Assembly: GCA_937907055.1 (NCBI GenBank) | Contig: CALCTW010000134.1 | Location: forward strand, 1-23,417 | Length of the DNA stretch: 23,417 bases | Source: an uncultured Clostridia bacterium | GTDB lineage: Bacteria; Bacillota; Clostridia; Christensenellales; Aristaeellaceae | Direction of reading: 5' to 3' | Notes under the pieces: generated by a model | Databases searched by the model: none | What the model saw: only the letters and a program-made list of their open reading frames with translations | What the model was told of the DNA's origin: nothing | Shown here: positions 2,422-23,417 of the stretch, piece by piece | How the letters are laid out: each line of letters opens with the position of its first letter | Position numbering within the stretch: the first letter of the stretch is position 1 | Made by a program: the position numbers and the translations under genes

Positions 2422-2432
2422 GCGTTTATGGG

Positions 2433-3058: not shown

Positions 3059-3157
3059 GAGGGCAGATCGGTTGCCCCGATCCCTTTCGGCGCGGACGGC
3101 GCGAGGGCTGCTGCCGGGAACGCGGGGGAGAAGGGTGTAACACTTTTTCCGCGGTGG

Positions 3158-3186
3158 TTGTGATGCCGGATGAAAAGTGGTATGAT
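3158..3186 (+). promoter_or_regulatory. sigma-70-type promoter candidate for the HAD hydrolase gene
   Basis: TTGTGA (3158-3163), a 17-nt spacer, then an extended -10 TGgTATGAT (3178-3186). The SD AAGGGGAGG (3192-3200) follows. Confidence 0.5.
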
Positions 3187-3209
3187 AGTATAAGGGGAGG
3201 TATGGACTG

Positions 3210-3977
3210 ATGATCAGGCTTGTTTGTTCCGATCTGGACGGCACGCTGCTGGAAAAGGGCGGCGTTCTGCCGGATGGTATTTTTGATGCGGTCCGCGCGC
3301 TGAAAAAGAAGGGCGTTCTGTTCGCGCCGGCTTCCGGCCGTCAGTATGATAACCTGCGCTCCCTGTTCGCGCCGGTGCGGGATGAGATCGCGTACATCTG
3401 CGAAAACGGCACGCTCACCGTGGCGGACGGGCAGAAGATGGGCTGCGGCTTTTTCCCGGAGGAGGTCGCGCGGCAGGTGATCCACGATATCCTGTCGCTG
3501 GATCTGCAGCTGCTGCTTTCCGTGCAGGATGCCTGTCTGGTGCTGGATACCGCGCCCCGCTCCTATACCGATGACATCGTTTACCGCCTGCGCAATACCA
3601 CCCGTGTCATCCATGATCCCATGATCTACGCGGGGGAGGCCATCAAGATCAGCGGCTTTGCCGCCGAAGGGCTGGGGGACCGCGCGCGGATCCTGCAGGA
3701 AAAGTGGCGTCCGGTCATGCATTGCGATGCCGTGGGCCCCTACTGGGTGGATTTTACCTACAACTGCAAGGGGGACGGCATCCGCGCCCTGTGCGATCAT
3801 TACGGCATCGCGCCGGAGGAGATCGCGGCTTTCGGCGACGCGCAGAACGACCGCTCCATGCTGGAGATGGTGGGTCATCCCTTTGTGATGGAAAGCGGCG
3901 ATCTGTCGCTGCTGAATGAGCGCGCCCGCACCAGCAAAACGGTGCTGGGCACTTTGAAGGAGCTGTTTGATCTGTAA
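3210..3977 (+). CDS. Cof-type HAD-IIB family hydrolase / sugar-phosphate phosphatase
   Basis: 255 aa. Motif I is CSDLDGTLL, motif II is APASGR and motif IV is FGDAQNDRSMLE. The length and cap architecture are typical of Cof/YidA-like phosphatases. It ends in TAA. Confidence 0.9.
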   Translation: MIRLVCSDLDGTLLEKGGVLPDGIFDAVRALKKKGVLFAPASGRQYDNLRSLFAPVRDEIAYICENGTLTVADGQKMGCGFFPEEVARQVIHDILSLDLQLLLSVQDACLVLDTAPRSYTDDIVYRLRNTTRVIHDPMIYAGEAIKISGFAAEGLGDRARILQEKWRPVMHCDAVGPYWVDFTYNCKGDGIRALCDHYGIAPEEIAAFGDAQNDRSMLEMVGHPFVMESGDLSLLNERARTSKTVLGTLKELFDL

Positions 3978-4082
3978 GCCCTTATAATACAGAAAAGAAC
4001 AGCGGTCTGTCTTCCGCGCGTTACGCGGCTTACATATTATGATTGATCATCATACGATTATTTTGAAACCGAGGCGAATCTT

Positions 4083-5486
4083 ATGCTCGAATTGAAGGAT
4101 TTTAAAAATTAGAGGATCCACATGATCGGGATTGGCGGCTCCTCCATGAGCGGTCTTTGCGAAATGCTGCTGACGGAGGGCTACACCGTGACCGGCTCGG
4201 ATAACACGCATTCCCACGCGGTGGAACGGCTGGAGGCACGCGGTGTTTCGGTCGTCATCGGCCATAAGGCGGAATCGGTGCACGGGGCCGGGCTGGTCAT
4301 CTACAGCGCCGCCATCGGCGAGGAAAACCCGGAGCGGGCGGAGGCCTTCCGGCTGGGTATTCCGCAGATGGAGCGCGCCGTGCTGCTGGGTCAGCTGATG
4401 CTGGGCCACGAGCATAATATCTGCGTTTCCGGCGCGCACGGCAAGACCACCACCTCCTCCATGATCGCGCAGGCGCTTGTGGAGGCCGGTGTCGATCCCG
4501 CCGTGCACATCGGCGGCCGTCTGGACGCCATCGGCGGCGGCAGCCTTGTGGGCTCCTCCCGCGCTTTTGTGGCGGAGGCCTGTGAGTTCCACGGCTCCTT
4601 CCTGCACATGTTCCCCACCCTCGCGGTCGTGCTGAACATCGATGAGGATCATCTGGATTATTACGGCGATATCGAGCATATCGAGGCTGCCTTCGGCGAT
4701 TTTCTGGCCCTCCTACCGGAGAACGGCATCGCGCTGGGCTGGGGCGAGGATGAGCGGATCACGCGTCTTTTCTCCCGTCTGCAGCAGAAGACCTGCACCT
4801 TTGGCCTTGCCGAAACGAATGATTTCTATCCCGCTTCGCTTTCCCTGTCCGATACCGGCTGCGGCATCTTTGATGTGATGCATGGGGGCGAAAAGCTGGC
4901 GCACATTGCCCTGTCCGTCGGCGGTGATTTTAATGTCATCAACGCGCTGGCGGCCTTTGCCGCGTGCTATCTCATCGGCGTTGAGCCGGATCAGATCGCC
5001 GCTTCCCTGTCCGCCTTCACCGGCGCGCGCCGCCGGGATGAGTTTACCGGCATGATCGACGGCGTGAAGCTGTATCACGATTACGGCCACAATCCGCCCG
5101 AAATGCGCGGCGCTATCCATGTGGCGCGCATGAAGCGTCCCACCCGCCTGTGGGCCGTCATGCAGCCCCATACCTACTCCCGTGTCAAGACTTTGTTTGA
5201 CGGTTATCTCACCTGCACCGCGGAAGCGGATATCACGCTCGTTACCGATATCTACGGCGCGCGCGAGGTGGATCCCGGCGACATCAACACGCCCATGATC
5301 ATCGAGGGCATGCGCGCGCACGGCATCCATGCCGTCCACACCCCCAACTTTGATGATACCGAGGCCTATCTGCGCGCTCACTGGCAGCCGGGCGATCTGG
5401 TGATCACGCTGGGCTGCGGCAATATCAATCTTCTCAATGAACAGATGCAGAAGCACGGTGATACCGTAAAGGAAGCAAAGGCATGA
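4083..5486 (+). CDS. murC: UDP-N-acetylmuramate--L-alanine ligase MurC, with an in-frame TAG at 4110-4112 in the N-terminal extension
   Basis: It has IGIGGSSMSGLCEMLLTEGYTVTGSD (Rossmann N-domain) and the GAHGKTTTSSMIA P-loop, in a Mur-ligase-length protein. The standard-code ORF starts at ATG 4122 (MIGIGG...). The conserved beta-1 strand RIH-M-IGIGG begins right after the TAG. An in-frame ATG at 4083 with an upstream GAGG gives MLELKDFKN-[TAG]-RIHMIGIGG. It ends in TGA, overlapping the next gene's ATG (ATGA). Confidence 0.88.
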
Positions 5487-6856
5487 GCAAGCGCTTTCTA
5501 TGCCTGATTTCCGGGCTTCTGGCCGCTTTGCTGCTTTTCGCGCCGGCGGCGTCCGCGCAGGGGGAATTCTCCTTCTGTCCCGCGTTTTTCGCGTTCGCGG
5601 ATCGCTATGACGCGGGGGAGAGCGTATCGCTCGCCCTGAGCGGCCATGTCAATAAGCTGCTCCCGTTTGAAGCAGAGGAGCTGGCTATCATCAACAGCGC
5701 GCTGGACGGGGCTTCGCTCACGCTCACTGCCGCGCGGGACGCGTCCGGCGCGTTCGCGCTTTCCCGCGGGGGGCTGCCCGTTCTTTCGTTCGCCTACCGG
5801 GATGATCTGGTGGCGGTCAATGATGAAGTATTGCTGCTTGGGCCTGTGGGGCAGGAGCAGCTCATTCCGCGGCAGCAGGCGGACCTGTGGGATTGTCTGA
5901 AGGCCATCCACGCCTCCCTGCCGCACATGGAGCAGGCGGTTTCCCTGCTTGCCCCGGTCAAGGCCGTTTCCGGCACCGTGATCAGCAATATCGGCTCCAT
6001 GCGCGAGGGGCGTGCCTACACGCTTTCCGCGGAGGCCGCGCAGCTTTTCCTGACAGGCATGTCCGCCCTGTTGCCGGAGGCATCGGGGATGGACGCGGTG
6101 AAGGAGGCGATCGCGCTTTGCAGCGCCTCCGGAGAGATCACCCTCACCTTTTATATGGATGCGCATGGGGATACGGTCTGCTGCGAGGGCGCGGGCCCGC
6201 TCCTGATCCGGGAGACGGATCACACCTTCCGCTTCCTGATCGCCATGAACGATACCGGCATCAATTGCTCCTTTACGGCATCCGCTGCTGCAGGAAAGGG
6301 GCTTTACCGCGTGGGCCTCAAGGCCAAGGTCAGCGAGGCCTCCTCCAGTCAGAAGGATCTGTCCGGTTCCGCGGAGTGGACGGTCCGCACGGATGAGGGC
6401 AAATATTCCCTCACTGGCGAAGCGGTGCTCAGCTCCCGCGCCCGCGCGGAGGGTGATACGCTGACCGGCCGTATCACCTGGACAGAGACGGACGGCGGCA
6501 CAGAGCGCGTTTATACGCTCAGGCCGGATCTGCTTTTTTCTGCGGATCAGGGGGCCGGCACGCTGTCCCTCACCCAGAAGAAGGGGGATACCACGCTCTT
6601 CAGCATGGATCTGAATGCTGTGCTGACGATGTCGCAGCCCGTGCTGCAGGACGCGCAGACGCCGAACCGCGTGGACGCGTACGCTTCCGAACGTATCGAG
6701 GACGCGCTGCTCAAGGCCTTCGCGGGGCAGATGGCCGCGCTGGATCAGCAGGATATGTATCTGCTCACCCACGCGCTCCGATCGGACGCGTGGATGGAGT
6801 CTACCACCGATCTGCAGAAGGTCTATTCCATTTTTGATTTCCAGGTGGAGGAATGA
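5483..6856 (+). CDS. secreted protein of unknown function (member 1 of a four-gene paralogous cluster)
   Basis: 457 aa with signal peptide MSKRFLCLISGLLAALLLFAPAASAQ. The start overlaps the murC stop. It ends in TGA. No family was recognised. Confidence 0.7.
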   Translation: MSKRFLCLISGLLAALLLFAPAASAQGEFSFCPAFFAFADRYDAGESVSLALSGHVNKLLPFEAEELAIINSALDGASLTLTAARDASGAFALSRGGLPVLSFAYRDDLVAVNDEVLLLGPVGQEQLIPRQQADLWDCLKAIHASLPHMEQAVSLLAPVKAVSGTVISNIGSMREGRAYTLSAEAAQLFLTGMSALLPEASGMDAVKEAIALCSASGEITLTFYMDAHGDTVCCEGAGPLLIRETDHTFRFLIAMNDTGINCSFTASAAAGKGLYRVGLKAKVSEASSSQKDLSGSAEWTVRTDEGKYSLTGEAVLSSRARAEGDTLTGRITWTETDGGTERVYTLRPDLLFSADQGAGTLSLTQKKGDTTLFSMDLNAVLTMSQPVLQDAQTPNRVDAYASERIEDALLKAFAGQMAALDQQDMYLLTHALRSDAWMESTTDLQKVYSIFDFQVEE

Positions 6857-6899
6857 TCACCCGGATTCCCGGGCTGTTGCCCGGAGAAGAGGAGGTCCT

Positions 6900-8294
6900 G
6901 TGAAAAAAGCATTCACGATCCTGCTTTGTATTTTGCTGCTCCTTCCGCTCAGCGCGGGGGCGAATGTCTATTCCCCGGTCGATTACACGATGGACCGCAA
7001 GCTCATCAGTCAGATCCGCACCGGCGGTTATGAGGGCACGGTCACGGTCGGCACACGGGGGGAAAGCATGGGCTATCCCTTTGATACCCTGTTTGCCCTG
7101 CTCCGTCCGCTGGATCAGGCTGTCATCACGTTTAACGGAACCGGAGAAAAAAATGTGGGCAACCACAATGATGTGCTGCTGACGGCAGCCCGCGGCGGTG
7201 AGGCCCTGACGGATCTGCGGCTGCAGACTTCACCGGAGCTGTGGGCGTTTTCGTCCGATACACTGCTTAAGGGACAGTTTTTCGCGTTCGATCCTTCGGC
7301 CTTCCTGACGATGTTTCTGGAACTGAATGAGATCCCCGCGGAGCTGCGCGCGTTTTTTACCGCGCGGGGCAGCGTTTTTCCGGCAGCGCTTTCCGAGTAT
7401 GAGGAGGAACTGGGGTTCTTCCTGGCGGAGTATTGCACCGTCGGCATCGAGGACGGCTGTTCCGTGCTGACGTACCGGGTGCCGGCAAAGGCGCTGATCA
7501 ACGAATGCGCGGATCTGCTTTCCCGCGTGCTCAGCAGGCCTGCCGCCCGTGCCGCGCTCTGTTCCTATCTGGAAGGGACGGGGCTGGAGGCCTTGATGAC
7601 AGCGGAAAACGCTGCCCTGCTGCCGGCTGCCGTGCGCATGCTGAAACTGAGCGGCGATCTTGTTCTCATCCGCCGTTTTGACGCCCGCGCGATGGAAATT
7701 GAGACGGAGGCGGAACTGCCGATGCCGACGGAGGGCGCGGTCTCCCGTGTCCTGATCCGGATCCGTCCGGGCGAAACCGGCACGATGCTGGATGTCACGG
7801 CAGAGTATCCGGAGGGGGATCTTGTGCGCTTCTCCTGTCTGCAGGAGCAGAACACCTGCACCGGCGTTTTCGCCGTCCGTTCCGCTGCCCGCGCGCTGGA
7901 TGAGGCCTTTGATTACAGCCTCACCCTCACCGAAAAGAACGTGAATTATGACCGCGTGGAGGATAAGGTGTCGCAGCGCTTCGGCTTCCTCCTCACACTC
8001 ACTCCGATGGAGGGCAGCCTTTCGCACAGCTTTACGGCGGAAGGACAGGTCACCCTGACCAGTCAGAAGAAAGAAGATAAGCCTACCTTCGCGGCCGGTA
8101 CCTGTGTGCTGGAGGATGAGACTACCGGCAGCGCGGTCACCTTTGACCTGAACGGAAAAACAAAGGCTGCCGCTGTGCCGGAGTTTATTGACGCGGCCGC
8201 GGTCACCCGCGCGGATCAGCTGCCGACGGAAGCGCTCCGCCAATGGCTGCAGGAGATCCTGGAGGCTTATGAGGCGGCGGTCCCTCAATTGTAA
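6900..8294 (+). CDS. secreted protein of unknown function (member 2 of the cluster)
   Basis: The GTG at 6900 is preceded by GAGGAGG (6887-6893). The signal peptide is VKKAFTILLCILLLLPLSAGA. The ORF-track start at 6834 is a TTG inside the previous gene. It ends in TAA. Confidence 0.7.
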   Translation: MKKAFTILLCILLLLPLSAGANVYSPVDYTMDRKLISQIRTGGYEGTVTVGTRGESMGYPFDTLFALLRPLDQAVITFNGTGEKNVGNHNDVLLTAARGGEALTDLRLQTSPELWAFSSDTLLKGQFFAFDPSAFLTMFLELNEIPAELRAFFTARGSVFPAALSEYEEELGFFLAEYCTVGIEDGCSVLTYRVPAKALINECADLLSRVLSRPAARAALCSYLEGTGLEALMTAENAALLPAAVRMLKLSGDLVLIRRFDARAMEIETEAELPMPTEGAVSRVLIRIRPGETGTMLDVTAEYPEGDLVRFSCLQEQNTCTGVFAVRSAARALDEAFDYSLTLTEKNVNYDRVEDKVSQRFGFLLTLTPMEGSLSHSFTAEGQVTLTSQKKEDKPTFAAGTCVLEDETTGSAVTFDLNGKTKAAAVPEFIDAAAVTRADQLPTEALRQWLQEILEAYEAAVPQL

Positions 8295-8310
8295 ATGTTA
8301 TCCCCTTTGC

Positions 8311-8339
8311 TTGACTTGTTTTCTGGTCTTATCTATAAT
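8311..8339 (+). promoter_or_regulatory. sigma-70 promoter for the 8379 gene
   Basis: TTGACT (8311-8316), a 17-nt spacer, then TATAAT (8334-8339). GGAGGT lies 8 nt before the ATG. The whole element is duplicated at 9950-9978. Confidence 0.7.
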
Positions 8340-8378
8340 ATATTTATTCCCTATACAGGAAAATGGAGGTAATCTGCA

Positions 8379-9854
8379 ATGATGAAAAAGATGCTTGCCC
8401 TTCTTATCAGCCTCATGATGCTGTTCAGCGTCTGCGGTGTGGCGGAAGGCGCGCTTGTGTGTGACAGCAATGTCAATGTCAACACGGAGGAACTGCTGAA
8501 CTTTGTTCGCGCCGTCAGCGGCACCGTGGACGCGGAGATCGAAGAGGAAGCGGTCACGATCCTGAACCTGCTTGCCAATGTGGTCAACAAGGTCCATACG
8601 CATGCCGTGATCAGTGAAAACGGCTGCGCCGGCACCCTGGCGCTGGGCGACAGCGATCTGGGCAGCGTGTATGCCGACTGGTCTGACGGTGTGAAGCTGT
8701 ATACCGATCTGCTGCCCTCCTACGCGGTGAACATCACGGCGGAGGAACTGCAGCCCTATGTTGAAATGGTCCAGCAGGCTGTTTCCCAGCTGCTCGGTGT
8801 CCTGATGACGATCGATACCGAAGCCTACGCGCAGCCCATCCGGGATCTGGCGCAGAAGTTCCTGGACAGCCAGGTGACGGAGAAGGTCACCTTCACCTTT
8901 GGCGATACCACCTATACCGATAAGGCCACCTACACCTTCACCTACGGCATGCTGGTGGACGCGGCCAACGAGATCGGCGCGCTGCTGAAGGCCGATGCCG
9001 AAAAGCTGGGCATGGGCGAGCTTTTCGATTTCGAAGCCAAAGTGACCGTCAGCGAAGCGGTTAAGCTGGACATTGAAGTGTACGCCAACGCCGGGAAGGA
9101 CATGCTGATCCTTGTCAAGAACGGGGATTACACCGGCATCGTTGTGACATGCAAGTATACCGAGACCGGTATGGATTGGGAATTCGCGATCGGTATCGAT
9201 GATTACACCCAGATCACCGGCAGCCTCTCTGTCGGCGATGGGCAGTTCACCTTCAATTGCGCGAATGATACGGTGGGCAGCTACGTGGAACAGCATAACG
9301 CGGTCAGCTTCACGCTGGTCACCGATCCCGTTCCGCTTCTGACCTACGCCGTGCATAAGGATTCCACTTCATATGGCTGGAATACCGGGCGGGATATCTA
9401 CTATACGCTCCTGCAGACAAGTGAAAACACCGTCTCTGTCATGATGGAGATGGCGATGAAGGAAGCCTACGGCGAAGAATCTGTGAATGTAACGATCCGC
9501 GAGCAGGCGGATGTGACCGTCACCGAGGATGGCCTGGAGGAGACCATGGTGCTGTATCTGGGCGACAGCGATGTGCCTGCCGTGACCGGCAACTACACCA
9601 TGACCATGACGAGTGAACCGGTCATCTTCCCCGAGCTGGACTGGGAGAACATGACGGTCGTCTCTCTGGAGGACATCCTGAACGCTTCCGAGGCCGGCTC
9701 CGATGAGATCGAAGCCGTGGAGAACGGTCTTCTCATGGATCTGATGGGATATACCGCGCCGCGTGTCATGATGGCTTTCCAGACGGAACTGCCCGATGAA
9801 TACGCGCAGATCATGAGCCTGATCGCGATGATCGTCGACGGCACACTCAACTGA
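8379..9854 (+). CDS. secreted protein of unknown function (member 3, tandem paralogue of the 10018 gene)
   Basis: 491 aa with signal peptide MMKKMLALLISLMMLFSVCGVAEG. It is clearly alignable by eye to the next gene (for example LYTDLLPSYAVNITAEEL against LSTDLLPSYGLHITAEDL). It ends in TGA. Confidence 0.8.
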   Translation: MMKKMLALLISLMMLFSVCGVAEGALVCDSNVNVNTEELLNFVRAVSGTVDAEIEEEAVTILNLLANVVNKVHTHAVISENGCAGTLALGDSDLGSVYADWSDGVKLYTDLLPSYAVNITAEELQPYVEMVQQAVSQLLGVLMTIDTEAYAQPIRDLAQKFLDSQVTEKVTFTFGDTTYTDKATYTFTYGMLVDAANEIGALLKADAEKLGMGELFDFEAKVTVSEAVKLDIEVYANAGKDMLILVKNGDYTGIVVTCKYTETGMDWEFAIGIDDYTQITGSLSVGDGQFTFNCANDTVGSYVEQHNAVSFTLVTDPVPLLTYAVHKDSTSYGWNTGRDIYYTLLQTSENTVSVMMEMAMKEAYGEESVNVTIREQADVTVTEDGLEETMVLYLGDSDVPAVTGNYTMTMTSEPVIFPELDWENMTVVSLEDILNASEAGSDEIEAVENGLLMDLMGYTAPRVMMAFQTELPDEYAQIMSLIAMIVDGTLN

Positions 9855-10017: not shown

Positions 10018-11535
10018 ATGATGAAAAAGATGCTCGCGCTGCTCCTTGGCTGTGTGATGCTGCTTGGCGTCTGCGGCGCGGCCGAGGATACGCTCAGCTG
10101 CAGGATGGAATATCAGTTCAACGCGGATGAGTTCAACGCGCTGCTGACCGGTATCGGCGGAGAGATCCCGGAAGAGGTTCAGCCCGTGATCGATCTGATG
10201 CTCAAGGTGCTGAATAAACTCTCCTTCAGCGGCATGATAAATGAAAAGGGCGCCAAGGGCGAGATCGCGCTGGGCGGTTCCGTGCTGGGCAATCTGTATA
10301 TCAACTGGGAGGACGGCATCCGGCTCAGCACCGATCTGCTTCCCTCCTACGGCCTTCACATTACCGCCGAGGACCTGGCGCCCGTGACCGATGTGCTGGC
10401 CAAACTGGCGCAGCTGGATCCGGCGGCCTATGTTGCGCCGTTCTATGACATGATCGCCGCGGTGGAAGCGACGGTGGTCACCGAGGCGGCCGAGACCGTG
10501 ATCGGCGATGTCACCTACACGGAAAAGACCACCTATACCTTCACAGAGAAGATGCTGGGCGATATGGTGAACGGCGTGCTTTCGCTGATCCGCGCGGATG
10601 CCGAAAAGCTCGGTCTGGGCGATATGATCGGCGCGGATGTCGTGAGCGAAGCCGATGAAGACAACAAAGCGTTTATCGTGATCTACAGCAACGACACGAA
10701 GAAACTGATCACGCTGGAGAATGACGCGGGCGCCGCCGCCTTTGTGATCACGCTCACCGAGGGTGAGAACGGCATGAACGGCACGGTCGTTGTCGGTGTC
10801 AATCCCGTTGTGAACGGCACCTTCATCCTGCGTGAAAATGGTTTCTCCTGCGCGGTCACAGCGGACGAAGTAGCCGGGGACTGGTTCGAGTCCCATTCGG
10901 TGCTTGAATGTGAGTTTACGCGGGATGAGAACGGCTTCTCCCTTGTGATAAAAGAGAGCGAATCGTTCAATGAGTGGACAGAATCCCACATGACGCTGGA
11001 ATGCGCCCTGCAGACCGCGCCTGTCTCCGTGTTCTCCTACGCGCTGCGCAGCGAGTCCGCGAGCGCCAACTGGAAGCAGATCAGCGAAATGAAGAACAGC
11101 TGGACGCTGACGGATGAAAACACCATCTCCTATCTGTCTGATATTTCTGTGCTGGAAGGCTATGACGGACGGGAAATGAGCATGGCCATGAAGGGCACGG
11201 GTGAAATGGTGCTTCTGGAGGACGGCATGGATATGACGAGCGCGGTGTACGTCAACGGCAGCGAGACCCCTCTCTGCGCAGCCACCGGCGCGCTGCGCTT
11301 CACGGACGAGGGGATCGATTTCCCTGCCTTCGATGAGGGCAAAACAGTCCTGACGATTGCGGAACTGAGCCGCCTCAGCGATAACGCGAATGCAGACGAA
11401 GCACAGACGCTGCTGCAGGGCATGATGAGCGAACTGATGGGCAACGGTATCGTCAATGTGATGACGGCTTTCCGGACAATGCCCGAAGAATACGAGCAGA
11501 TCATGGACTTCGCGGTACCTTCGCGGTACAGATGA
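10018..11535 (+). CDS. secreted protein of unknown function (member 4, tandem paralogue of the 8379 gene)
   Basis: The ATG at 10018 follows GGAGGT. The signal peptide is MMKKMLALLLGCVMLLGVCGAAED. The ORF-track start at 9886 lies upstream of the promoter and terminator and is not credible. It ends in TGA. Confidence 0.8.
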   Translation: MMKKMLALLLGCVMLLGVCGAAEDTLSCRMEYQFNADEFNALLTGIGGEIPEEVQPVIDLMLKVLNKLSFSGMINEKGAKGEIALGGSVLGNLYINWEDGIRLSTDLLPSYGLHITAEDLAPVTDVLAKLAQLDPAAYVAPFYDMIAAVEATVVTEAAETVIGDVTYTEKTTYTFTEKMLGDMVNGVLSLIRADAEKLGLGDMIGADVVSEADEDNKAFIVIYSNDTKKLITLENDAGAAAFVITLTEGENGMNGTVVVGVNPVVNGTFILRENGFSCAVTADEVAGDWFESHSVLECEFTRDENGFSLVIKESESFNEWTESHMTLECALQTAPVSVFSYALRSESASANWKQISEMKNSWTLTDENTISYLSDISVLEGYDGREMSMAMKGTGEMVLLEDGMDMTSAVYVNGSETPLCAATGALRFTDEGIDFPAFDEGKTVLTIAELSRLSDNANADEAQTLLQGMMSELMGNGIVNVMTAFRTMPEEYEQIMDFAVPSRYR

Positions 11536-15385: not shown

Positions 15386-16783
15386 ATGAAAAGGATCCTT
15401 CCCCTGCTTCTGATCACAGTATTGCTGTTTTCCCTGGCACTTCCCGCGCTGGCGGACAAGGCGGTCGTCATCACGCGCCAGCCGAAGAACACCACCGTAC
15501 ACGCCGGCGGAAACGCTTCGTTCTCTGCCGAGGCCGACAATGACAACGGCATCACCTGGCGGCTTGTCAGCCCTGACGGCAGTCAGGAGATCCTGGTCAA
15601 GGATGTGGGCACGGTCTTCCCGGGCGTGACCTATTCCGGCAGGAACGGCGATACCCTCACCCTCAAGAATGTGCCGGCCGAAATGAACGGCTGGGGCGTA
15701 TACTGCACCTACAGCAATGCCACCGGTAAGTATCCCACCAAAATGGCGTATCTTTATATCGAGGGCGCTTCCGCGGTTTTCATTCCCACCGGGAACGACG
15801 CGGGCGGTGAGATCGCCGGTTACAACGGCAACGAGGGCTTTGATGATAACGATGCCCTCTCCTACGCCGCCGCGGCGGAGGGCCGTCTGCTGCTGACCGT
15901 CAGGGGCGCCACGCTGACCGCGGACGGATACGTCGGCAATCAGGTGGATTTCACCAAGGCCGGTCAGATCTCCTTCAAGGTGAACGCGGATGTAACGCCC
16001 GCCTACTGGGTGATCAACGGCGCGCGCTATGATTTTGATCAGGTGCCGACTGTGATCTCTGTGCGTGATCTGAACTACTCCATGACCATCGAAGCCGTTC
16101 CGCGCGGCGCTGCCAGCGAGACACGGCTGAACGCCGAGGCCCTGCAGGCCAAGCGCACCGGCGCGCCACTGATCGCGACCTCCAAGAGCGCGGATCTGTG
16201 CTTTATCAACGCCGCCGGTCAGGGCAAGGGCGGCTGGTTCCGTGAGTTTGATTTCACCAATGATTATCAGAACCTCGCCACCAATCAGACCGAGCAGGGC
16301 GGCAGCATCACGCTGCGCTGTCGGGCTTATGTGGCGCCGGATCACAAGATCACCGCGTGGGAATTCAATAAAGTACGCCTCACGTTCTCTTCTTATGTGA
16401 CCGAATTTATCGTCAGCGGCCTGAATGAGACGATGGAATATCATCCCCTCACCGAGGCTGTGCCGGTCTACTACAATATTACCTGTGACGGCTGCACCTT
16501 CACCGGCGGCGGCTATACGAACGCGACCTCCGGCACCGTGCCGGCCGGCACATCGGTCACCTTCAACACCAAGTGGCTGCGTGTGATGTACTGGAATATC
16601 AACGGCAGCACGCTGACCCGGAAGGGCCAGATGCAGGTGGATGAAGGCTACTGGGATGATAGAGAGGAACTGTGGGTAGAAGTGCTGGTGTGGAAGGACG
16701 CGGATGTCAATGTGGCGGATGATTCCATCACGCGCACCATCAATAAGGATACCACGGTCAAGTGCCAGGCGGTGATCTATTGA
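15386..16783 (+). CDS. secreted protein with an N-terminal Ig-like domain, unknown function
   Basis: The signal peptide is MKRILPLLLITVLLFSLALPALA. It is followed by an Ig-like pattern (ITRQPKNTTVHAGGNASFSAEA...ITWRLV...GDTLTLKNV...GVYCTYSN). The SD GAGGAGG lies upstream. It ends in TGA. Confidence 0.7.
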   Translation: MKRILPLLLITVLLFSLALPALADKAVVITRQPKNTTVHAGGNASFSAEADNDNGITWRLVSPDGSQEILVKDVGTVFPGVTYSGRNGDTLTLKNVPAEMNGWGVYCTYSNATGKYPTKMAYLYIEGASAVFIPTGNDAGGEIAGYNGNEGFDDNDALSYAAAAEGRLLLTVRGATLTADGYVGNQVDFTKAGQISFKVNADVTPAYWVINGARYDFDQVPTVISVRDLNYSMTIEAVPRGAASETRLNAEALQAKRTGAPLIATSKSADLCFINAAGQGKGGWFREFDFTNDYQNLATNQTEQGGSITLRCRAYVAPDHKITAWEFNKVRLTFSSYVTEFIVSGLNETMEYHPLTEAVPVYYNITCDGCTFTGGGYTNATSGTVPAGTSVTFNTKWLRVMYWNINGSTLTRKGQMQVDEGYWDDREELWVEVLVWKDADVNVADDSITRTINKDTTVKCQAVIY

Positions 16784-16903: not shown

Positions 16904-16938
16904 AAAAAGGACACCATTCCGGGGAATGATGTCCTTTT
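16904..16938. terminator. bidirectional rho-independent terminator
   Basis: AAAAGGACA-C-CATTCC-GG-GGAATG-A-TGTCCTTTT. The A-tract and T-tract flank the stem on both sides. It lies 14 nt downstream of the minus-strand stop at 16952-16954. Confidence 0.7.
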
Positions 16939-16951
16939 CCTGTTCAGGGGG

Positions 16952-17443
16952 TTATTTGACCGTACCGCAATTCTTGCAGGTCGCCTTGCTGACGGGGTTC
17001 TCGGTGCCGCACGTGGGGCATTTCCACGTCGCGATGGGGGCAGGTGCGTGTTCGGGCTTGGACTTTTCGCCGTTTCTCGCCTTTCCGGTCAGACGGTCAG
17101 CGCCGCACTTGGAGCAGGTGATCCGAGAAACGGGGTTGTTGGTCTGACAGTTGGAGCAGGTCCAGTTCCGGTCCCGGAACATGGAGAAGGAACCGGAATT
17201 CTCAGATTCCTTGTCCGCGCAGGTGCCGATGGCGTAGATCACATTCGCGCTCAGCCAACTGAAGGCTGAACCTAAAAGCAACGTGATGATGCCGAGGAAA
17301 ATGAAAGGATGCTCATAACCCTAATTCCGGACATACACTTCGATCCCGAACAGGGAGATCGCGCCCCAGATAGTCGCAACGACACCGCTGATGCACCAGA
17401 TGTAAGCGAAGATCTTGCTCATCTTTCCACATAATTTGAACAT
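16952..17443 (-). CDS. two-TM membrane protein with two C-terminal RanBP2-type zinc fingers; the frame contains one in-frame TAG (17323..17321)
   Basis: A strong SD (AAGGAGG) lies 7 nt before the ATG at 17443. The product reads MFKLCGKMSKIFAYIWCISGVVATIWGAISLFGIEVYVRN-[TAG]-GYEHPFIFLGIITLLLGSAFSWLSANVIYAIG...WTCSNCQTNNPVSRITCSKCG...WKCPTCGTENPVSKATCKNCG. The ORF track shows only 16952..17281, which starts at a TTG inside TM2 with no SD. It ends in TAA. Confidence 0.7.
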
Positions 17444-17520
17444 AATGTTCCCTCCTTGGATATGTTATAGATTATTTAGAGACCGGGTCGTCGAAACGAC
17501 CGGAGCAGTCTTACAGAAGA

Positions 17521-18048
17521 TCAGTTCTGAGATGAAAACGCGGATTTAAAAGTTCCGCATTTCTTACAGATCCCATCACTGTCTGAGTTCTCCGTTCCGC
17601 AGGTGAGGCATCTCCACATTCCCGGGGACGCGGGTTGGGACACATCTATCTTTTCCGGGATGATGGTCTGAGGATCTGTCGGCGCGGACTCATCCTGCTT
17701 TTTCGAGACGACCGTATCCGGTGTGACAGGTGCGGTCACCGTGGTGGGCGCGGTCGTTGCGGCGGATGCCTGAGTGGAGGACGCTTCACTCAGTTTGATC
17801 AGGAAAAAGGCAATCCCAATGATGCCGCCGATGACGGACAAGCCGCCGAATACGCGATTCAGGTTCTCGTTGAGCAACACAACATTGTTGGCGGTATAAC
17901 GGGTGGCCCTGTAGATGTATGTGTAGGCATCGCCGCCGAAAGAAGTATAGTCGGCGGTCGATCCGGTGGGCTGACTGAGGGTGTTGATGCCGAAGATAAT
18001 GAGCGCGATGCAGGCCGCGATGCCCAGAACGGAAGCAAACTTTTTCAT
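17521..18048 (-). CDS. two-TM membrane protein with a Thr/Ala/Pro-rich linker and one C-terminal RanBP2-type zinc finger
   Basis: 175 aa with TM segments near the N-terminus and at GGLSVIGGIIGIAFFLI. The C-terminal WRCLTCGTENSDSDGICKKCG matches W-x-C-x2-C-x3-N-x6-C-x2-C. It ends in TGA. Confidence 0.75.
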   Translation of the reverse strand: MKKFASVLGIAACIALIIFGINTLSQPTGSTADYTSFGGDAYTYIYRATRYTANNVVLLNENLNRVFGGLSVIGGIIGIAFFLIKLSEASSTQASAATTAPTTVTAPVTPDTVVSKKQDESAPTDPQTIIPEKIDVSQPASPGMWRCLTCGTENSDSDGICKKCGTFKSAFSSQN

Positions 18049-18286
18049 AGGAATCTCTCTTTATTAATTGATGATCAATATTGTAGCATCGGGACAGTCT
18101 TTTGTCAATTTTGCAGTCTGATTCTTAAACGAAAACGAAAGCATTTTGAACGCAAGATAAATCAGATCGATACTTTTATGATATTTCTTCTTAATACCCC
18201 CTCGTCTATAATGTGCACTGTCAGGAGGATGAAAGACCTCCTGAGGAAAGAAGATAAAACGCCTGATAAGGCGGGAGGTAATGGAT

Positions 18287-18835
18287 ATGAAAAAGATCTC
18301 TGTTCTGATGGTTGCCCTGATTCTGGCCATTCTCGCGATCGTTCCTGTGATGTCCGCGCATGCTGAAAACGCGAACATCGCCTCATATACGATGTATGTT
18401 TCTTCTTCCAACGGCAAGGGCGTGCGTATGCGCTCCGGTGCCTCTACGGATTCCGATGTTCTCTTCAATCTGGGCGAAGGCCGCCCGGTTACTGTTACAG
18501 GTGCGTTTGGTGACTGGTCCATTGTCCGTGTCAGTGTGAACGGCAAGAGCTATAACGGCTACATTATGAGCCAGTTCCTTTCAAGCACCGATCCTTCCAC
18601 CCTTCCGCAGACCTTTAAGCCTGTAAGCCGCTTCGCGATCCGTGTTCGCGCGGCTTCCGCGGATGGTGTGGTCTCCATGTGGAAAACGACCAACAAGCAG
18701 GTTGCAAATAAAATGCGCGATCTGACCCGTACGGAAACCCTTACGGTGATCCAGGAAAGCCGCGCTTGGTATCTTGCTGAAGATATGTACGGCAATGTCG
18801 GCTATGTCGCCAAGGCCTACGTTACAGCCTGCTGA
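18287..18835 (+). CDS. secreted protein with two bacterial SH3 (SH3b) domains
   Basis: The ATG at 18287 lies 8 nt after GGGAGG (the ORF track starts two codons earlier, at 18281). The signal peptide is MKKISVLMVALILAILAIVPVMSAHA. SH3_3-like segments are present (VRMRSGASTDSDVLFNLGEGRPVTVTGAFGDWSIVRV...GYIMSQFL, and a second copy ending GYVAKAYV). It ends in TGA. Confidence 0.75.
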   Translation: MKKISVLMVALILAILAIVPVMSAHAENANIASYTMYVSSSNGKGVRMRSGASTDSDVLFNLGEGRPVTVTGAFGDWSIVRVSVNGKSYNGYIMSQFLSSTDPSTLPQTFKPVSRFAIRVRAASADGVVSMWKTTNKQVANKMRDLTRTETLTVIQESRAWYLAEDMYGNVGYVAKAYVTAC

Positions 18836-18927
18836 TTCCTCTCTCTTTCTTCTTTTTCCTTACCCGGTAACGTGAAGGACGCACTCAAGATGGATTCCTT
18901 GCCATCGCGTCCGGGCGCGTTACCCGG

Positions 18928-18963
18928 AAGACTGCCGCGATTGATCCCGCGGCAGTCTTTTGA
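18928..18963 (+). terminator. rho-independent terminator
   Basis: AAGACTGCCGCG (18928-18939) pairs with CGCGGCAGTCTT (18948-18959) around a short loop and is followed by T residues. Confidence 0.8.
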
Positions 18964-18975
18964 TGTACAGGCATA

Positions 18976-19007
18976 CAAAAACAGCGGCACCGAACGGGAT
19001 GCCGCTG
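18976..19007 (-). terminator. rho-independent terminator for the tsaC/GH13 operon
   Basis: On the minus strand, CAGCGGCA-TCCCGTTCGG-TGCCGCTG is followed by TTTTTG. It lies 25 nt downstream of the stop at 19032. Confidence 0.75.
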
Positions 19008-19031
19008 TGAATGTTATTTACAAGCTGTGAT

Positions 19032-20039
19032 TTATACTTCCACGATATCGAAGGCCGCCGCGCGCGCCATGCGGTTCATGACCGCCAGCGCCTCGCCCTC
19101 CGCCTTCCAGCCTTCGGCGAAAATGCGGCTGATCTTTTCTTCGTCCATGCGGCGAAGCAGATCAAAAAGCAGGTGCGCGGCCTCGGTCGGTGTGCTGCCG
19201 AGGGAATAGGCGCGGAGACCTTCATACGCCGGCAGATTCTGCTCATGGCAGAGGATGCAGGCGTTTGTTTCTTTTAAGTAAAGCGGACGGATGACGGCAG
19301 GGGTGTTTTCGCCCACGTAAAGCGTCATGCGGCCCTTGGGGGCGTAATGCCGGTGCTTCATGCCGGGGGAGGGCGCGCTTTCGCCCTCCTGCAGCGGACG
19401 CATCACGGCATCGCTGACGGCGCTTTCGCCGCACACCTCCGCGATCATTTCGGCGGTCACAGCGCCGGGGCGCAGCACAGTGGGGGTGTCCCCGCTGCAA
19501 TCGCACACCGTGCTCTCCACGCCGAAACGGCAATCCCCGCCGTCCAGAATGAGGGGGATCCGGCCGGTCATGTCTTCAAATACATGCAGGGCGGTCGTGG
19601 GCGAGGGGCGGCCGGAGAGATTGGCGCTGGGCGCGGCGATGGGTACACGGCAGGCACGGATAAAATCCAGCGCCGCCTTGTTGCCCGGCATGCGCACGCC
19701 CACGGTCCTGAGACCGGCGGTGGTGGTATCGGGCACGTTCCGCTTGGGCAGAAGCAGGGTGAGCGGCCCCGGCCAGAAGGCGTTCATCAGCTTTTCGGCC
19801 ATGGGATTGACCTCGCAGAGCGTGTCCAGCATGCCGCGGTCGGAAATGTGAACGATCAGCGGATTATCCTGCGGACGGCCCTTTGCCGCGAAGATGGAAC
19901 GGACAGCCTCTTCATTGAGGGCATCCGCGCCCAGACCGTACACGGTCTCGGTGGGGAAGGCGACAAGCTGACCCGCGCGGATCAGCTCACCGGCTTTATT
20001 AAGGGATTCTTCCGTTACGGGAAGAAGTTCGGTGTTCAT
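19032..20039 (-). CDS. tsaC: L-threonylcarbamoyladenylate synthase (Sua5/YwlC/TsaC type, with a C-terminal Sua5 domain)
   Basis: 335 aa. It has VAFPTETVYGLGADA, KGRPQDNPLIVH and APSANLSGRPSPT in the YrdC-like domain, followed by a Sua5-type C-terminal domain. The start overlaps the upstream GH13 stop (ATGA). It ends in TAA. Confidence 0.9.
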   Translation of the reverse strand: MNTELLPVTEESLNKAGELIRAGQLVAFPTETVYGLGADALNEEAVRSIFAAKGRPQDNPLIVHISDRGMLDTLCEVNPMAEKLMNAFWPGPLTLLLPKRNVPDTTTAGLRTVGVRMPGNKAALDFIRACRVPIAAPSANLSGRPSPTTALHVFEDMTGRIPLILDGGDCRFGVESTVCDCSGDTPTVLRPGAVTAEMIAEVCGESAVSDAVMRPLQEGESAPSPGMKHRHYAPKGRMTLYVGENTPAVIRPLYLKETNACILCHEQNLPAYEGLRAYSLGSTPTEAAHLLFDLLRRMDEEKISRIFAEGWKAEGEALAVMNRMARAAAFDIVEV

Positions 20040-21823
20040 CCTTCATAACCTCCGGAAAGATCGGGCAGGTCGCGCCTGTCGAAGGTCATTTCAAACGTTT
20101 CATCCGCGGCCGGGACGCCGAAGGCATCCGCGTCGTGTCTGTTGTAGCGTGTGATGGTGATGATGTCCTCATCCAGCGCTTCCACCTTCACAAAGCCGGT
20201 CTGCAGCACCTGAGAAGCGGAGCGGCGGGTGAGGATGTCACGGATGAAGCTTAACATCTGGGTGTTCTGATTTTCCCAGTCAAAGGTGCCGCGGCAGAAG
20301 GGATCCGGCGCGCCCTGCATGCCGATCTCATCGCCGTAATACAGGCAGGGGATGCCGGGCAGCACGCTCATCATCTGCATCATCATGGCGAAGCGGCCTT
20401 CGCCGAGGGCGTATTTTTCTTTGGTCAGGCGCTTGCCGGGACGATCCTTGAAGGGCACATCCTCAAAGGTGCATTCGGCCAGATAATTGACCGCGCGGGC
20501 CCTGTCGTGGCTGCCGCACAGGTTCATCAGGCTGTAGTAGAAGGGAGCGGGGTAGTTTTCCTTCTGGGAGGTGATGATGCGCGCCAGACCGAAGGCGGAA
20601 AGCTTGAAGGTGAGGAAGCGGATCAGCGCGTCACGCAGGGGGTAATTCATCACGCTGTCCAGCGTGTCGCCCTGACAGTAGCAGCGCATTTCGCCGTAGG
20701 CCACCTTGTGGCTGGCATCCTCCCACACCTCGCCCAGCACGACGGCCTGTTCATTTTCGGCCTTGACCGCCTTGCGGAGCTTGCGCAGAAAATCCATCGG
20801 CAGCTCATCCGCCACATCCAGCCGCCAGCCGTCTGTGCCCATGCGGATCCACTTGCGCACGATGCCGTCCTTGTTGAACATGAAGCTCTGATACCGGCGG
20901 TTGTCCTTGTTGACGGCGGGCAGGGTGGTAAAGCCCCACCAGCTGTTGTATTTATCGGGGTATTTCTCGAAGGAATACCAGTCGTAATACTTGCTTTCCT
21001 TGCTCTGGTACGCGCCGACGGTGGGATAATTGCCGTAGCGGTTGAAATACAGGCTGTCATCGCCCGTGTGGCTGAAAACACCGTCCAGCATGACGGACAT
21101 CCCCAGCGCCTGCGCCTTTTCGCACAGCACCTTCAGATCATGATTGGTGCCGAGCAGCGGATCCACCTGAGAATAATCCCCGGTGTCATAGCGGTGATTG
21201 CTGTGCGCCTTGAAAATGGGGTTCAGGTAAAGCACGGTGATGCCGAGCGACTGCAGATAGGGCAGCTTTTCGGCAATGCCGTTCAGTGTGCCGCCGAAGA
21301 AATCGATGCCGTTCGGGTTCGGTTCCTTCTTTCCGGGAATGACGGCCGGGGTCTCGTGCCAGTCCCTGTGCAGGTAAATGTCATCGCGGTCTGTGACCGG
21401 GGCACGGTCGCGGTAAAAGCGATCCGGGAAGATCTGATACATGACACCGTGGCGCATGAAGCGCGGGGTGTCATAAGCGGGATCGTACACCGTGATCTGA
21501 TATCCGCGGGGGAACATGGTCATCTGACCGCTGCCGCCCAGCATGTCATCGTTGTTGCCGTAGCAGAGCACATCTCCCTCATCATTCACGGCCTTGAAAT
21601 CATACCAGCAGAGGATGGGGACTTCCGGCATGGTGAGGGTATATTCGTAGACGTTGCGCTCGGTGTTGATCATGGGCAGGAAAAACTCGCTGCCGTTATA
21701 AAAACGCAGATACACCTTGGTGGCCCCGATGGCGCGGACACGGATGGTGACCTTGTCGCCGCATCTGAGGGCTCCGAAGGGATCGCGGTAGAATAAACTG
21801 TGTGAGTCGTGATAAAGCTGCAT
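20036..21823 (-). CDS. glycoside hydrolase family 13 alpha-glycosidase (neopullulanase / cyclomaltodextrinase / maltogenic-amylase-like)
   Basis: 595 aa with an N-terminal domain beginning MQLYHDSHSLFYRDPFGA. The GH13 conserved regions are present: LYLNPIFKAHSNHRYD, GWRLDVADELP, VLGEVWED and LCGSHDRARA. It ends in TGA. Confidence 0.9.
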   Translation of the reverse strand: MQLYHDSHSLFYRDPFGALRCGDKVTIRVRAIGATKVYLRFYNGSEFFLPMINTERNVYEYTLTMPEVPILCWYDFKAVNDEGDVLCYGNNDDMLGGSGQMTMFPRGYQITVYDPAYDTPRFMRHGVMYQIFPDRFYRDRAPVTDRDDIYLHRDWHETPAVIPGKKEPNPNGIDFFGGTLNGIAEKLPYLQSLGITVLYLNPIFKAHSNHRYDTGDYSQVDPLLGTNHDLKVLCEKAQALGMSVMLDGVFSHTGDDSLYFNRYGNYPTVGAYQSKESKYYDWYSFEKYPDKYNSWWGFTTLPAVNKDNRRYQSFMFNKDGIVRKWIRMGTDGWRLDVADELPMDFLRKLRKAVKAENEQAVVLGEVWEDASHKVAYGEMRCYCQGDTLDSVMNYPLRDALIRFLTFKLSAFGLARIITSQKENYPAPFYYSLMNLCGSHDRARAVNYLAECTFEDVPFKDRPGKRLTKEKYALGEGRFAMMMQMMSVLPGIPCLYYGDEIGMQGAPDPFCRGTFDWENQNTQMLSFIRDILTRRSASQVLQTGFVKVEALDEDIITITRYNRHDADAFGVPAADETFEMTFDRRDLPDLSGGYEG

Positions 21824-21853
21824 AAGTAACTCCGTTCGATCGGTATCCCTTTA

Positions 21854-21882
21854 ATTATAGCAACGGAAAGAGGTTTATTCAA
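21854..21882 (-). promoter_or_regulatory. sigma-70 promoter for the GH13-tsaC operon
   Basis: On the minus strand: TTGAAT (21882..21877), a 17-nt spacer, then TATAAT (21859..21854). GGAG lies 7 nt before the ATG at 21823. Confidence 0.65.
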
Positions 21883-22046
21883 GTAAAAAATGCCCTTTGA
21901 CAGATCGGGCGGCGCGGCGGGAGGTGGCTTAAAACGCGCCGTGAAAGCACAGAAAAACGGCATAAAACGGAACAGCGCCGCAAAGCCTTTTCCGGTAGGC
22001 AAAAATGTGATATGATAGATACAGACCCGCAAAGGAGGATAATGAA

Positions 22047-22700
22047 ATGAGAAAATGGACGGCGATCGCGCTGGTACTGATGATGCTCCTGACCCTGACG
22101 GCAGCGGCGGAGGAAACGATCAATCTGCCCCGTGTGACAGAGAAGAATTCTGTTCTGTACGATAATTCCTATCTGGGCTATTCCCTGCGTGTGTGGGAAT
22201 ATTTCACGGCGGTGCCGGACGCGGCCAATCAGGATCAGCTGAAGCTCATCCGCGAAAACGCCGGTGAGGATGATGATTATGTGTATGATGTGCGCTATTG
22301 GGTGCTGGGCGTGACAGAGAATGAATACATGACCTTCTGCGTGCAGCTGAAGGAGCGGAGCTGCGAGACCTTTGAGCAGGAAGTGGCGAATGCCGCCGTT
22401 TACGCTGAGATCGCGAACGCGAAGCTGCCTGAGGACGGAAGCCTGGGCTATTATGAAAACGTGCATGAGGGCATCCTGCGCGATACCCCGGCCGGACAGA
22501 TGCTGGAGACCGCCTATCGCTTCACCGACGCGCAGGGAAAGCAGATGACGGTGGTGTATTATGATTTTTATTACAATACCATCGAATACTGCTTTGTGCT
22601 GGAAAACGAAAGCAGCCTGATCAGCGTGGAGACCATGCAGCAGCTGCTGGGCGACATGATGTCCACCATCAGCGTTCAGAATGTGATCAGCGAGGTGTAA
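22047..22700 (+). CDS. secreted protein of unknown function
   Basis: 217 aa with signal peptide MRKWTAIALVLMMLLTLTAAA. AAAGGAGG lies 9 nt upstream, and an extended -10-like TGATATGAT lies about 35 nt upstream. It ends in TAA. Confidence 0.7.
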   Translation: MRKWTAIALVLMMLLTLTAAAEETINLPRVTEKNSVLYDNSYLGYSLRVWEYFTAVPDAANQDQLKLIRENAGEDDDYVYDVRYWVLGVTENEYMTFCVQLKERSCETFEQEVANAAVYAEIANAKLPEDGSLGYYENVHEGILRDTPAGQMLETAYRFTDAQGKQMTVVYYDFYYNTIEYCFVLENESSLISVETMQQLLGDMMSTISVQNVISEV

Positions 22701-22793
22701 AGGGATTCATGGTCTGCAGGATTGAATGATCGTTCCTTGTGCCGCGGCGGCGAAAGACGGGCAATTCGTATGCGATGATCCGGGAAACCCATC

Positions 22794-22823
22794 TTGTACC
22801 GCATGAGGAAGCTGTGGTATAAT
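22794..22823 (+). promoter_or_regulatory. promoter candidate for the LRR surface-protein gene
   Basis: TTGTAC (22794-22799), an 18-nt spacer, then an extended -10 TGgTATAAT (22815-22823). Confidence 0.5.
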
Positions 22824-22880
22824 AACAAAAAAAGCGTTGAATCCATGCAGCTTCACGCCTGAAACGAAAGGTTGATTAGC

Positions 22881-23417
22881 ATGAAAAAGTGGTTGGCTTT
22901 GATTCTGATGGCAGTTCTGATGCTCTGCACAGCAGTGGCTGTGGCGGAAAAGAGCGGAGATTATACATACAGGGTCCTGTAGGATGGCACGGCAGAAATC
23001 ACCCGGTATAACGGCAATGCATAGGTGTAGTTGGTGATTCCGGATACTTTGGGCAATCGTGTCGTTACCGCTATCGGCGATTCGGCTTTTGCGGATTGGT
23101 TTAGTTCCATCGAAGTCGTCACCATCCCTGACAGTGTTACCACCATCGGCAATTACGCTTTCGCCCACTGTGACTGGCTAACTTCTATCACTCTTCCTGA
23201 CGGCTTGACGACAATCGGCAACTACGCCTTTCTGCAATGCAAAGCGCTTTCCAAAATCACGATTCCCGGCAGTGTGGTTTCTATCGGAAGGGGTGCCTTT
23301 ACCTACTGTGAGAACCTCTCTTCTGTCACTCTTTCCGACGGTCTCATTTCTATCGGTGACTTTGCCTTCCAGGGCTGCATAATCAGCAGCATTACCATCC
23401 CCGGGAGTGTCACATAG
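22881..23417 (+). CDS. BspA-type leucine-rich-repeat cell-surface protein (3' partial) containing four in-frame TAG codons
   Basis: ATG at 22881, then signal peptide MKKWLALILMAVLMLCTAVAVA. The product continues EKSGDYTYRVL-[TAG 22980]-DGTAEITRYNGNA-[TAG 23022]-V-[TAG 23028]-LVIPDTLGNRVVTAIGDSAF. Four repeats of the IPxSVTxIGxxAFxxC type follow. The window ends at IPGSVT-[TAG 23415], in the middle of a repeat. The ORF track shows only 23031.., a TTG start with no SD and no signal peptide. Confidence 0.8.

Follow-up and report, generated by a model that had tools for sequence, protein, structure and literature searches.

A gene for a secreted leucine-rich repeat (LRR) protein of the BspA type, whose first 179 codons close the stretch of DNA analyzed here (the window, 23,417 nt), is intact and is written with TAG as a sense codon. 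It is interrupted by in-frame TAG and by no other stop, it lies in an insertion that varies between strains of the species, and the strain that carries it has TAG instead of CAG at one codon in each of two host genes. The most likely reading, to which a rough probability of 0.55 is given, is that of a foreign gene in a TAG-sense code which is read by amber suppression, the suppressor coming from a recoded phage-like element.

The window is part of a bacterial chromosome and not of a phage, as judged from its gene content and Pfam matches. It comprises genes for a HAD hydrolase, murC, four large secreted proteins, a MIF-like gene, a short-chain dehydrogenase (SDR) and a PRPP synthetase, as well as genes for an Ig-domain protein, zinc-ribbon proteins, an SH3 protein, Sua5 and an alpha-amylase. 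Its GC content lies between 55 and 63%, with the exception of an island of 40% GC at 1-2985. A search of GTDB genomes with the amylase returned only relatives of at most 42% identity. The right end of the window contains the following features:

22047..22700, + strand: conserved gene for a secreted protein of 217 amino acids, the last host gene before the insertion, present in all strains
22764..22880, + strand: upstream region specific to the insertion, read from the sequence
22881..23417, + strand: 5′ part (179 codons) of the BspA-type LRR secreted-protein gene, identified by translation and PF13306

Translation of 22881-23417 gives four in-frame TAG codons (22980-22982, 23022-23024, 23028-23030 and 23415-23417) and neither TAA nor TGA, and the frame free of the latter two extends over 22863-23417. 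Starting from the ATG at 22881 it reads MKKWLALILMAVLMLCTAVAVAEKSGDYTYRVL∗DGTAEITRYNGNA∗V∗LVIPDTLGNRVVTAIGDSAF...IPGSVT∗, in which, as in all sequences below, ∗ stands for TAG. The region 23031-23414 belongs to the LRR_5 family (PF13306; E=1.8e-35, 122 bits), membership being assigned by a score above the Pfam gathering cut-off, which is 27.7. The four in-frame TAG codons in a BspA-type LRR gene, which an earlier note on this DNA had described, are thereby confirmed. The note had also recognized a canonical N-terminus that spans the first three of these codons, and this is borne out by relatives with the same N-terminal module, which are read straight through the TAG columns, e.g., SGDYKYILLEDGTAEITDYSGNESELQIPSLLDEYTVTSIGDSAF. 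Across the same columns, P0012 and P0016 read ...YILLEDGTAEITDY.GN..EL.IP..., and the N- and C-terminal modules align with P0002, P0010, P0012, P0016, P0022, P0052, and P0083.

The gene agrees with BspA-type LRR proteins of gut Clostridia in its domain, in the register of its repeats, in having a signal peptide and in the two terminal modules (N-terminal GDYxYxLLxDGTAEITxYxG and C-terminal SYAxQYCxxNxLxY). However, the 120 retrieved protein predictions of this family are without an internal stop, and the closest of them is about 55% identical. The Sec-type signal peptide, MKKWLALILMAVLMLCTAVAVA/EKS, was read from the sequence and shows an n-region with KK, a hydrophobic core and the motif AVA/E. 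A Shine-Dalgarno (SD) sequence, GAAAGG, is located at 22866-22871, with the ATG following 9 nt on. Further upstream, a −35-like TTGTAC (22794-22799) is separated by an 18-nt spacer from an extended −10 element, TGgTATAAT (22815-22823). This promoter is a putative one, since the −35 element is weak and a consensus promoter scan of the equivalent upstream region of a second strain (L034, see below) listed no promoter. Under the standard code, translation of the LRR gene would end after 33 residues. It follows that the full-length protein requires an amber-suppressor tRNA with the anticodon CUA.

The complete gene is available from the assembly L034 (Logan SRR21151017), which is 98% identical to the window over 18075-23417:

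L034 4776-7148: full LRR orthologue of 790 codons with 13 TAG codons and a TGA stop, identified by translation

Over these 790 codons the orthologue contains 13 in-frame TAG (1.6% of all codons of the gene), no TAA, no TGA and no frameshift. With TAG read as sense it matches PF13306 with E=1.4e-230 and 752.7 bits, in 7 stretches that cross TAG sites. The earlier note had named two findings that would speak against its reading, a loss of the LRR periodicity after position 23417 and a decaying gene with frameshifts and other stop types. In L034 the repeat stays in register beyond the last TAG of the window (IPGSVT∗IGSQVFSYCDSLTSITF), and neither a frameshift nor another stop type occurs. The C-terminal module of the family is kept as well (RDSYA∗QYCKNNSLKY), and 18 nt past the TGA a terminator follows, consisting of a GC-rich hairpin and a U6 stretch (MFE of the 52-nt segment −14.5 kcal/mol).

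All four TAG codons of the window recur in L034, which is an independent assembly from another run and differs at 2% of the sites. The two strains are distinguished at the TAG cluster by a 6-bp indel which keeps the frame and includes a TAG (GCA TAG GTG TAG TTG versus GCA TAG GTA TTA TAG TAG TTG), and in the 179 shared LRR codons they show four synonymous and four non-synonymous changes. The nucleotide after the 13 TAG codons is mixed (G 4, T 4, A 3, C 2), so that no conserved context signal is seen.

Five lineages of the species were compared: W (the window), A (L032, L033, L036, L037, and L038), B (L039, NCBI GCA_045628485.1), C (L034) and D (L001). The LRR gene is present in W and C and absent from A and B. 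In the latter two, the 217-amino acid gene is followed by a tRNA-Leu(UAA), an abhydrolase gene and a C_GCAxxG gene, with the tRNA seen directly in L036 alone (16214-16300), where it has its own promoter-like site (TTGCGT-17-TATAAT) and a hairpin downstream. The homology of W and C to A stops at window position 22763, 47 bp before the tRNA-Leu(UAA) site. The breakpoint is therefore 5′ of the tRNA and not at the tRNA 3′ end, as in classical integration. Directly after the stop of the 217-amino acid gene, the window and L034 differ by a deletion or replacement of about 32 bp (window 22698-22745, L034 4625-4640), and this gene stops with TAA in the window and with TGA in L034. Thus, even the two LRR-bearing strains vary at the junction.

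The GC content at third codon positions (GC3) of the LRR gene is 0.54 (0.60 for the part in the window), compared to 0.60-0.785 in 18 host genes, and is the lowest found here except for two genes of the low-GC island at the left end. As the gene lies in a strain-variable insertion of lower GC, it was acquired horizontally, the evidence from composition being moderate. The earlier note had proposed that the high TAG density may stem from low expression or recent evolution of this class of genes. This is not the best explanation, since the gene is absent from two lineages, adjoins a tRNA-Leu site and has a low GC3, all of which make it look imported from a background in which TAG is sense. No tRNA was found in the window, in L001 or in L032-L035, and an Rfam scan of the window and L034, which cover about 2.6 kb of the insertion, gave none either, with no Rfam match of any kind in the window. 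Phage hallmark genes were not found in the window or L034, the sequences of which end inside the LRR gene and 74 bp after it, respectively.

According to the preferred reading, an LRR gene of about 790 codons would have been written where TAG is a sense codon, most likely for glutamine (genetic code 15), and would have entered a gut Clostridia chromosome between the 217-amino acid gene and the tRNA-Leu(UAA) locus by horizontal transfer. Its most plausible source would be a TAG-recoded phage-like element, or an element travelling with one, and an amber-suppressor tRNA (CUA) could let the full-length LRR protein be made. The suppressor tRNA, its source, its amino acid and the link to phages are what we infer here. 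TAG-recoded prophages of about 24 kb, termed Garnet and Topaz, have been described in Prevotella and Oscillospiraceae that use the standard code; their limits are set by an integrase and a host tRNA and are visible as a change in GC content (10.1101/2021.08.26.457843). Furthermore, the Phassvirus phages of Clostridia (phAss-1) encode three Sup-CTA tRNAs read as glutamine, and some recoded phages are without such suppressor tRNAs (PMC10607447).

The LRR insertion resembles these code-15 phages and prophages in that its reading frame is broken by in-frame TAG alone and is restored when TAG is taken as sense, and it shares with the prophages a location next to a tRNA gene, a presence that varies between strains and a GC content shifted from that of the host. 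On the other hand, it shows no phage gene, integrase or suppressor tRNA in the sequence reached, it is a self-contained surface-protein cassette, and its breakpoint lies upstream of the tRNA. In addition, host genes of the window carry TAG at glutamine codons, which is undescribed for lysogens. Finally, code-15 phages read TAG as glutamine via Sup-tRNA(CUA), whereas the profile of the LRR family prefers glutamate.

Among 80 viral LRR_5 loci examined in IMG/VR, one (L135, IMGVR_UViG_3300021399_000352) likewise has LRR_5 repeats with in-frame TAG (VTSI∗DYAFE∗CSRLTS). TAG-recoded viral contigs can therefore carry this type of protein. However, the similarity is generic (about 46% in the repeats), the GC content of this contig is 40%, and its viral status comes from IMG/VR alone. 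In its region 1-8631 the + strand ORFs, including two LRR_5 genes, contain 2-9 in-frame TAG each, those neighbouring the LRR_5 repeats 2-4 each, and the minus-strand ORFs 6928-7410 and 7549-8631 contain none, which looks like block-wise TAG recoding. No tRNA was detected within the 8.6 kb examined.

Further searches gave no close relative. A search of JGI metagenomes with the full LRR protein had a best match of 39% identity, and the matched frames were without TAG. A search of IMG/VR with the LRR protein, the neighbouring 217-amino acid protein and the abhydrolase returned nothing close, and blastn of the insertion against INPHARED and PLSDB returned no match. Only distant BspA-like matches were obtained by tblastn against phages, and the four that were inspected contain no in-frame TAG. 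L035, which has a neighbour protein of 53% identity, contains no LRR gene.

Two host genes of the window contain an internal TAG, both identified by comparison with sister strains:

4083..5486, + strand: murC, encoding UDP-N-acetylmuramate--L-alanine ligase, with TAG as codon 10 (4110-4112)
16952..17443, − strand: zinc-ribbon membrane-protein gene of 165 codons with the SD sequence AAGGAGG and TAG as codon 41 (17321-17323)

The murC product of the window starts with MLELKDFKN∗RIHMIGIGG. In lineage A, the MurC protein (P0121, 98% identical, 467 amino acids) has a glutamine at the position of the TAG, and CAG to TAG is the sole DNA difference touching this codon. The codon lies in a 13-residue N-terminal extension which is conserved in the 120 relatives examined. 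MurC relatives are named as "Clostridia bacterium" MAGs. In the 115 relatives that could be scored, the column is occupied by lysine (81), glutamine (23), arginine (7) and glutamate (1). The only apparent exception, a murC call starting from MIGIGG (P0221), was considered as a second TAG case and was rejected as a miscalled TTG start. Four codons past the TAG, both strains have an ATG (4122) preceded by an internal SD sequence (AGAGGA), and a start there could give a protein without residues 1-13.

In the zinc-ribbon gene, the window has EVYVRN∗GYEHPF and L039 has EVYVRNQGYEHPF, which again corresponds to a change of CAG (glutamine) to TAG. The gene has a host-like GC3 of 0.74 and is missing from lineage A; its Pfam matches cover the C-terminal part of the product. 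It belongs to a second strain-variable segment (16905-18116), which is present in the window and L039, is absent from lineage A, and consists of two minus-strand zinc-ribbon membrane-protein genes, one of which has the CAG to TAG change. Apart from murC and the LRR gene, the delimited + strand genes of the window have no internal TAG. The housekeeping genes, for which the earlier note gave a far lower TAG density, are not free of this codon, as murC has TAG where the sister strains have CAG. Expressed as a share of the putative glutamine codons, TAG makes up 13 of 26 in the LRR gene versus 2 of about 163 elsewhere.

In 5,886 aligned codons, the strains show 293 synonymous, 151 non-synonymous and two internal stop-involving differences, those of murC and the zinc-ribbon gene. 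Both of the latter are CAG to TAG changes and both occur in the LRR-bearing window strain. For neutral changes in one lineage, 161 CAG codons and a third-position C/T divergence of 4.6% predict about 3.7 such events, compared to the two observed. The spectrum and rate of the window-specific substitutions resemble those of the other lineages, so that DNA damage or error is not indicated for the host TAG codons. No in-frame TAG was found in about 40 kb of sister strains at 97-98% identity. A CAG to TAC difference at 16589-16591 is uninformative, as it sits in a locally divergent, probably recombined patch. This patch (16560-16620, within the gene 15386-16783) reads RVMYWNI versus HVAQWKV in all other lineages and looks like a recombination tract; the rest is 96-98% identical.

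The 26 core genes delimited in the sister strains end with TGA (17) or TAA (9), and none with TAG. TAG stops usually account for about 15%, yet 0 of 17-19 were counted at some Ruminococcus loci in a crude greedy ORF census, which is noisy in high-GC DNA. As some Clostridia loci are thus also without TAG stops, the absence of TAG among the 26 stops is weak evidence. The two host TAG codons are suggestive rather than decisive, because a true premature stop could be tolerated at either position; fully neutral CAG to TAG changes would be expected to fall mostly within the bodies of essential genes. Taken together, the two CAG to TAG changes suggest that amber suppression operates in the window strain. 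The further step, that this strain itself decodes TAG as glutamine or glutamate, perhaps via a constitutive suppressor tRNA of a mobile element, and is in an incipient reassignment at strain level, with CAG to TAG changes beginning to build up in its own chromosome, one of them in the essential murC, is a tentative possibility.

For the amino acid inserted at TAG, a Codetta-like test was applied, in which a 41-residue window around each TAG was compared to all repeats of 120 family members and the log-odds were summed. Over 13 TAG columns it gave +15.6 bits for glutamate, 0 for aspartate, −3.8 for lysine and asparagine, and −12.4 for glutamine. In the control, D, E, K, N, S, T, R, and Y were recovered at their own sites and Q was not. 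The composition of the LRR protein agrees with this test, which favours glutamate: it contains 2.9% glutamate compared to a family mean of 4.1 ± 1.7, and 1.65% glutamine compared to 1.2 ± 0.7, which would rise to 3.3% if TAG encodes glutamine. Two TAG columns (x-DGVLF) hold a conserved isoleucine in the relatives. The host sites (murC codon 10 and zinc-ribbon codon 41), both of which are CAG in sister strains, point to glutamine together with the phage precedent, whereas the family profile points to glutamate. Glutamine is probably the meaning of TAG here, followed by glutamate and then by any other amino acid. Many Firmicutes make glutaminyl-tRNA by charging the tRNA with glutamate and then amidating it, and by this route a suppressor could deliver either of the two. 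The hint of the earlier note that a small or polar residue is encoded was too loose, as the TAG columns are mostly of the acidic or amide type in the relatives and two hold the conserved isoleucine.

Several points stand against the phage-derived reading. Neither a tRNA nor a phage gene lies in the sequence reached, the breakpoint is 5′ of the tRNA, and IMG/VR, INPHARED, PLSDB and the JGI metagenomes gave no close relative. The gene resembles an ordinary bacterial surface cassette with promoter-like site, SD sequence, signal peptide and terminator, the profile favours glutamate, the glutamine share would be high if TAG is glutamine, and two TAG columns are conserved isoleucine in the relatives. 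Both host TAG codons are at nonsense-tolerant positions.

The same observations bear on an alternative in which the LRR gene would be a recent copy, taken from a TAG-recoded phage or another TAG-sense donor into a standard-code bacterium, that remains untranslated past codon 33, the host TAG codons being tolerated nonsense mutations. The gene would then be intact because it is young, or would be expressed only during induction of a recoded prophage. Its foreign composition and strain variability, the position of both host TAG codons where a loss is tolerable, and the lack of a suppressor tRNA in the window, L001, and L032-L035 agree with this, as does the published model, in which the lysogen does not translate the genes of a recoded prophage (10.1101/2021.08.26.457843). 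Nevertheless, it is considered unlikely. The frame is open in two strains that differ by 2%, even across the in-frame indel, and the ratio of four synonymous to four non-synonymous changes in 179 codons, the promoter-like site, SD sequence and terminator of the gene itself, and the restriction of nonsense differences in 5,886 codons to two CAG to TAG changes in the LRR-bearing strain argue against it.

A change of the code at the level of the lineage, with a chromosomal tRNA(CUA), a lost or weakened RF1, a native, fast-evolving LRR gene and TAG slowly spreading, appears distinctly improbable. It could account for the CAG to TAG changes in murC, an essential gene, and in another host gene, whose GC3 is 0.74, for the lack of TAG among the 26 core-gene stops, and for a number of CAG to TAG changes near the neutral expectation (2 versus about 3.7). 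However, a single shared history does not explain a TAG share of 13/26 versus 2/~163 of the glutamine codons, in-frame TAG is lacking from about 40 kb of the sister strains (97-98% identity), and the lack of TAG stops is weakly unusual at most, given the 0/17-19 at some Ruminococcus loci. The known bacterial TGA reassignments (tryptophan in code 4, glycine in code 25) would be similar in that housekeeping genes carry a stop codon at conserved sense sites and the genes sampled do not end with this codon; the two sites concerned here could tolerate a real stop. They differ by being lineage-wide, by affecting TGA and by involving the loss of a release factor, while TAG and a strain-level change are concerned here. 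A literature search gave only three genetic codes for bacteria, and a bacterial reassignment of TAG was not found in it.

Reading of TAG as pyrrolysine by a pylT/pylS system is very improbable. Lysine occupies the murC column in 81 of 115 relatives and ranks third in the profile test, but 13 pyrrolysines in a structural repeat protein are without precedent, the sister strains have glutamine codons at both host sites, and no pyl genes were found in about 70 kb of sequence of the species. To our knowledge, the use of pyrrolysine in bacteria is confined to methylamine methyltransferases.

Decay of an ordinary pseudogene by nonsense mutations is very unlikely and effectively refuted: the frame is broken after 33 codons under the standard code, yet mixed stops, frameshifts and eroded motifs are lacking, the repeat consensus, the C-terminal module (RDSYA∗QYCKNN) and the signals at both ends are intact, and 13 TAG among 13 stops in 790 codons have a probability of ~2e-6 to 5e-6 under random nonsense mutation, for which single-base nonsense mutations of the gene's own codons would give TAG in 36-39%. 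An assembly or sequencing artefact, such as C to T damage or a chimeric contig, has a negligible probability; C to T errors at CAG could in principle produce all three classes of TAG, but the four TAG codons of the window are reproduced in the independent, 2% divergent L034 assembly, and the substitution spectrum and rate of the window match those of other lineages. Given the integrity of the gene in L034, the TAG-only stops, their P value and the in-frame indel, both decay and artefact fail to explain it.

TAG recoding has so far been known from gut phages and prophages. Here, a chromosomal surface cassette of bacterial type is written with sense TAG, and the same strain has TAG at glutamine codons of its own genes. 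If decoding by the host proves true, sense TAG in housekeeping genes of a bacterial chromosome would be reported here for the first time. An active suppression would mean that a mobile element could be observed as it pulls its host toward another genetic code, would offer a natural test case for the codon-capture and ambiguous-intermediate models, and would imply that, in such MAGs, gene calling with the standard code silently truncates proteins such as MurC and surface antigens. Without active suppression, there is still a clear recoded gene inside a standard-code chromosome, which annotation pipelines would miscall as fragments.

The low-GC island at 1-2985 is a further strain-variable part of the window: lineage A does not have it and carries an aldo-keto reductase gene and other genes in its place. 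It contains three genes:

start to ~320, frame 3: truncated gene for a BlaI/MecI-type repressor
317-1240: gene for a BlaR1 M56 peptidase
1200-2234: gene for a multi-pass membrane protein of 344 amino acids

The membrane-protein gene is the only gene of the window that ends in TAG; read-through of this codon would add 9 residues up to a TAA at 2262-2264.

The four large secreted proteins, which match no Pfam family, are encoded in two tandem pairs (5483-6856 and 6900-8294; 8379-9854 and 10018-11535). The proteins encoded at 8379 and 10018 are paralogues with the common signal peptide MMKKMLALL, and an upstream stretch of about 175 bp (8274-8446) has an 84% match to a second one, which in L032 and L036 precedes the orthologue of the paralogue at 10018. 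Between strains, the gene 8379-9854 shows 28 non-synonymous versus 14 synonymous differences.
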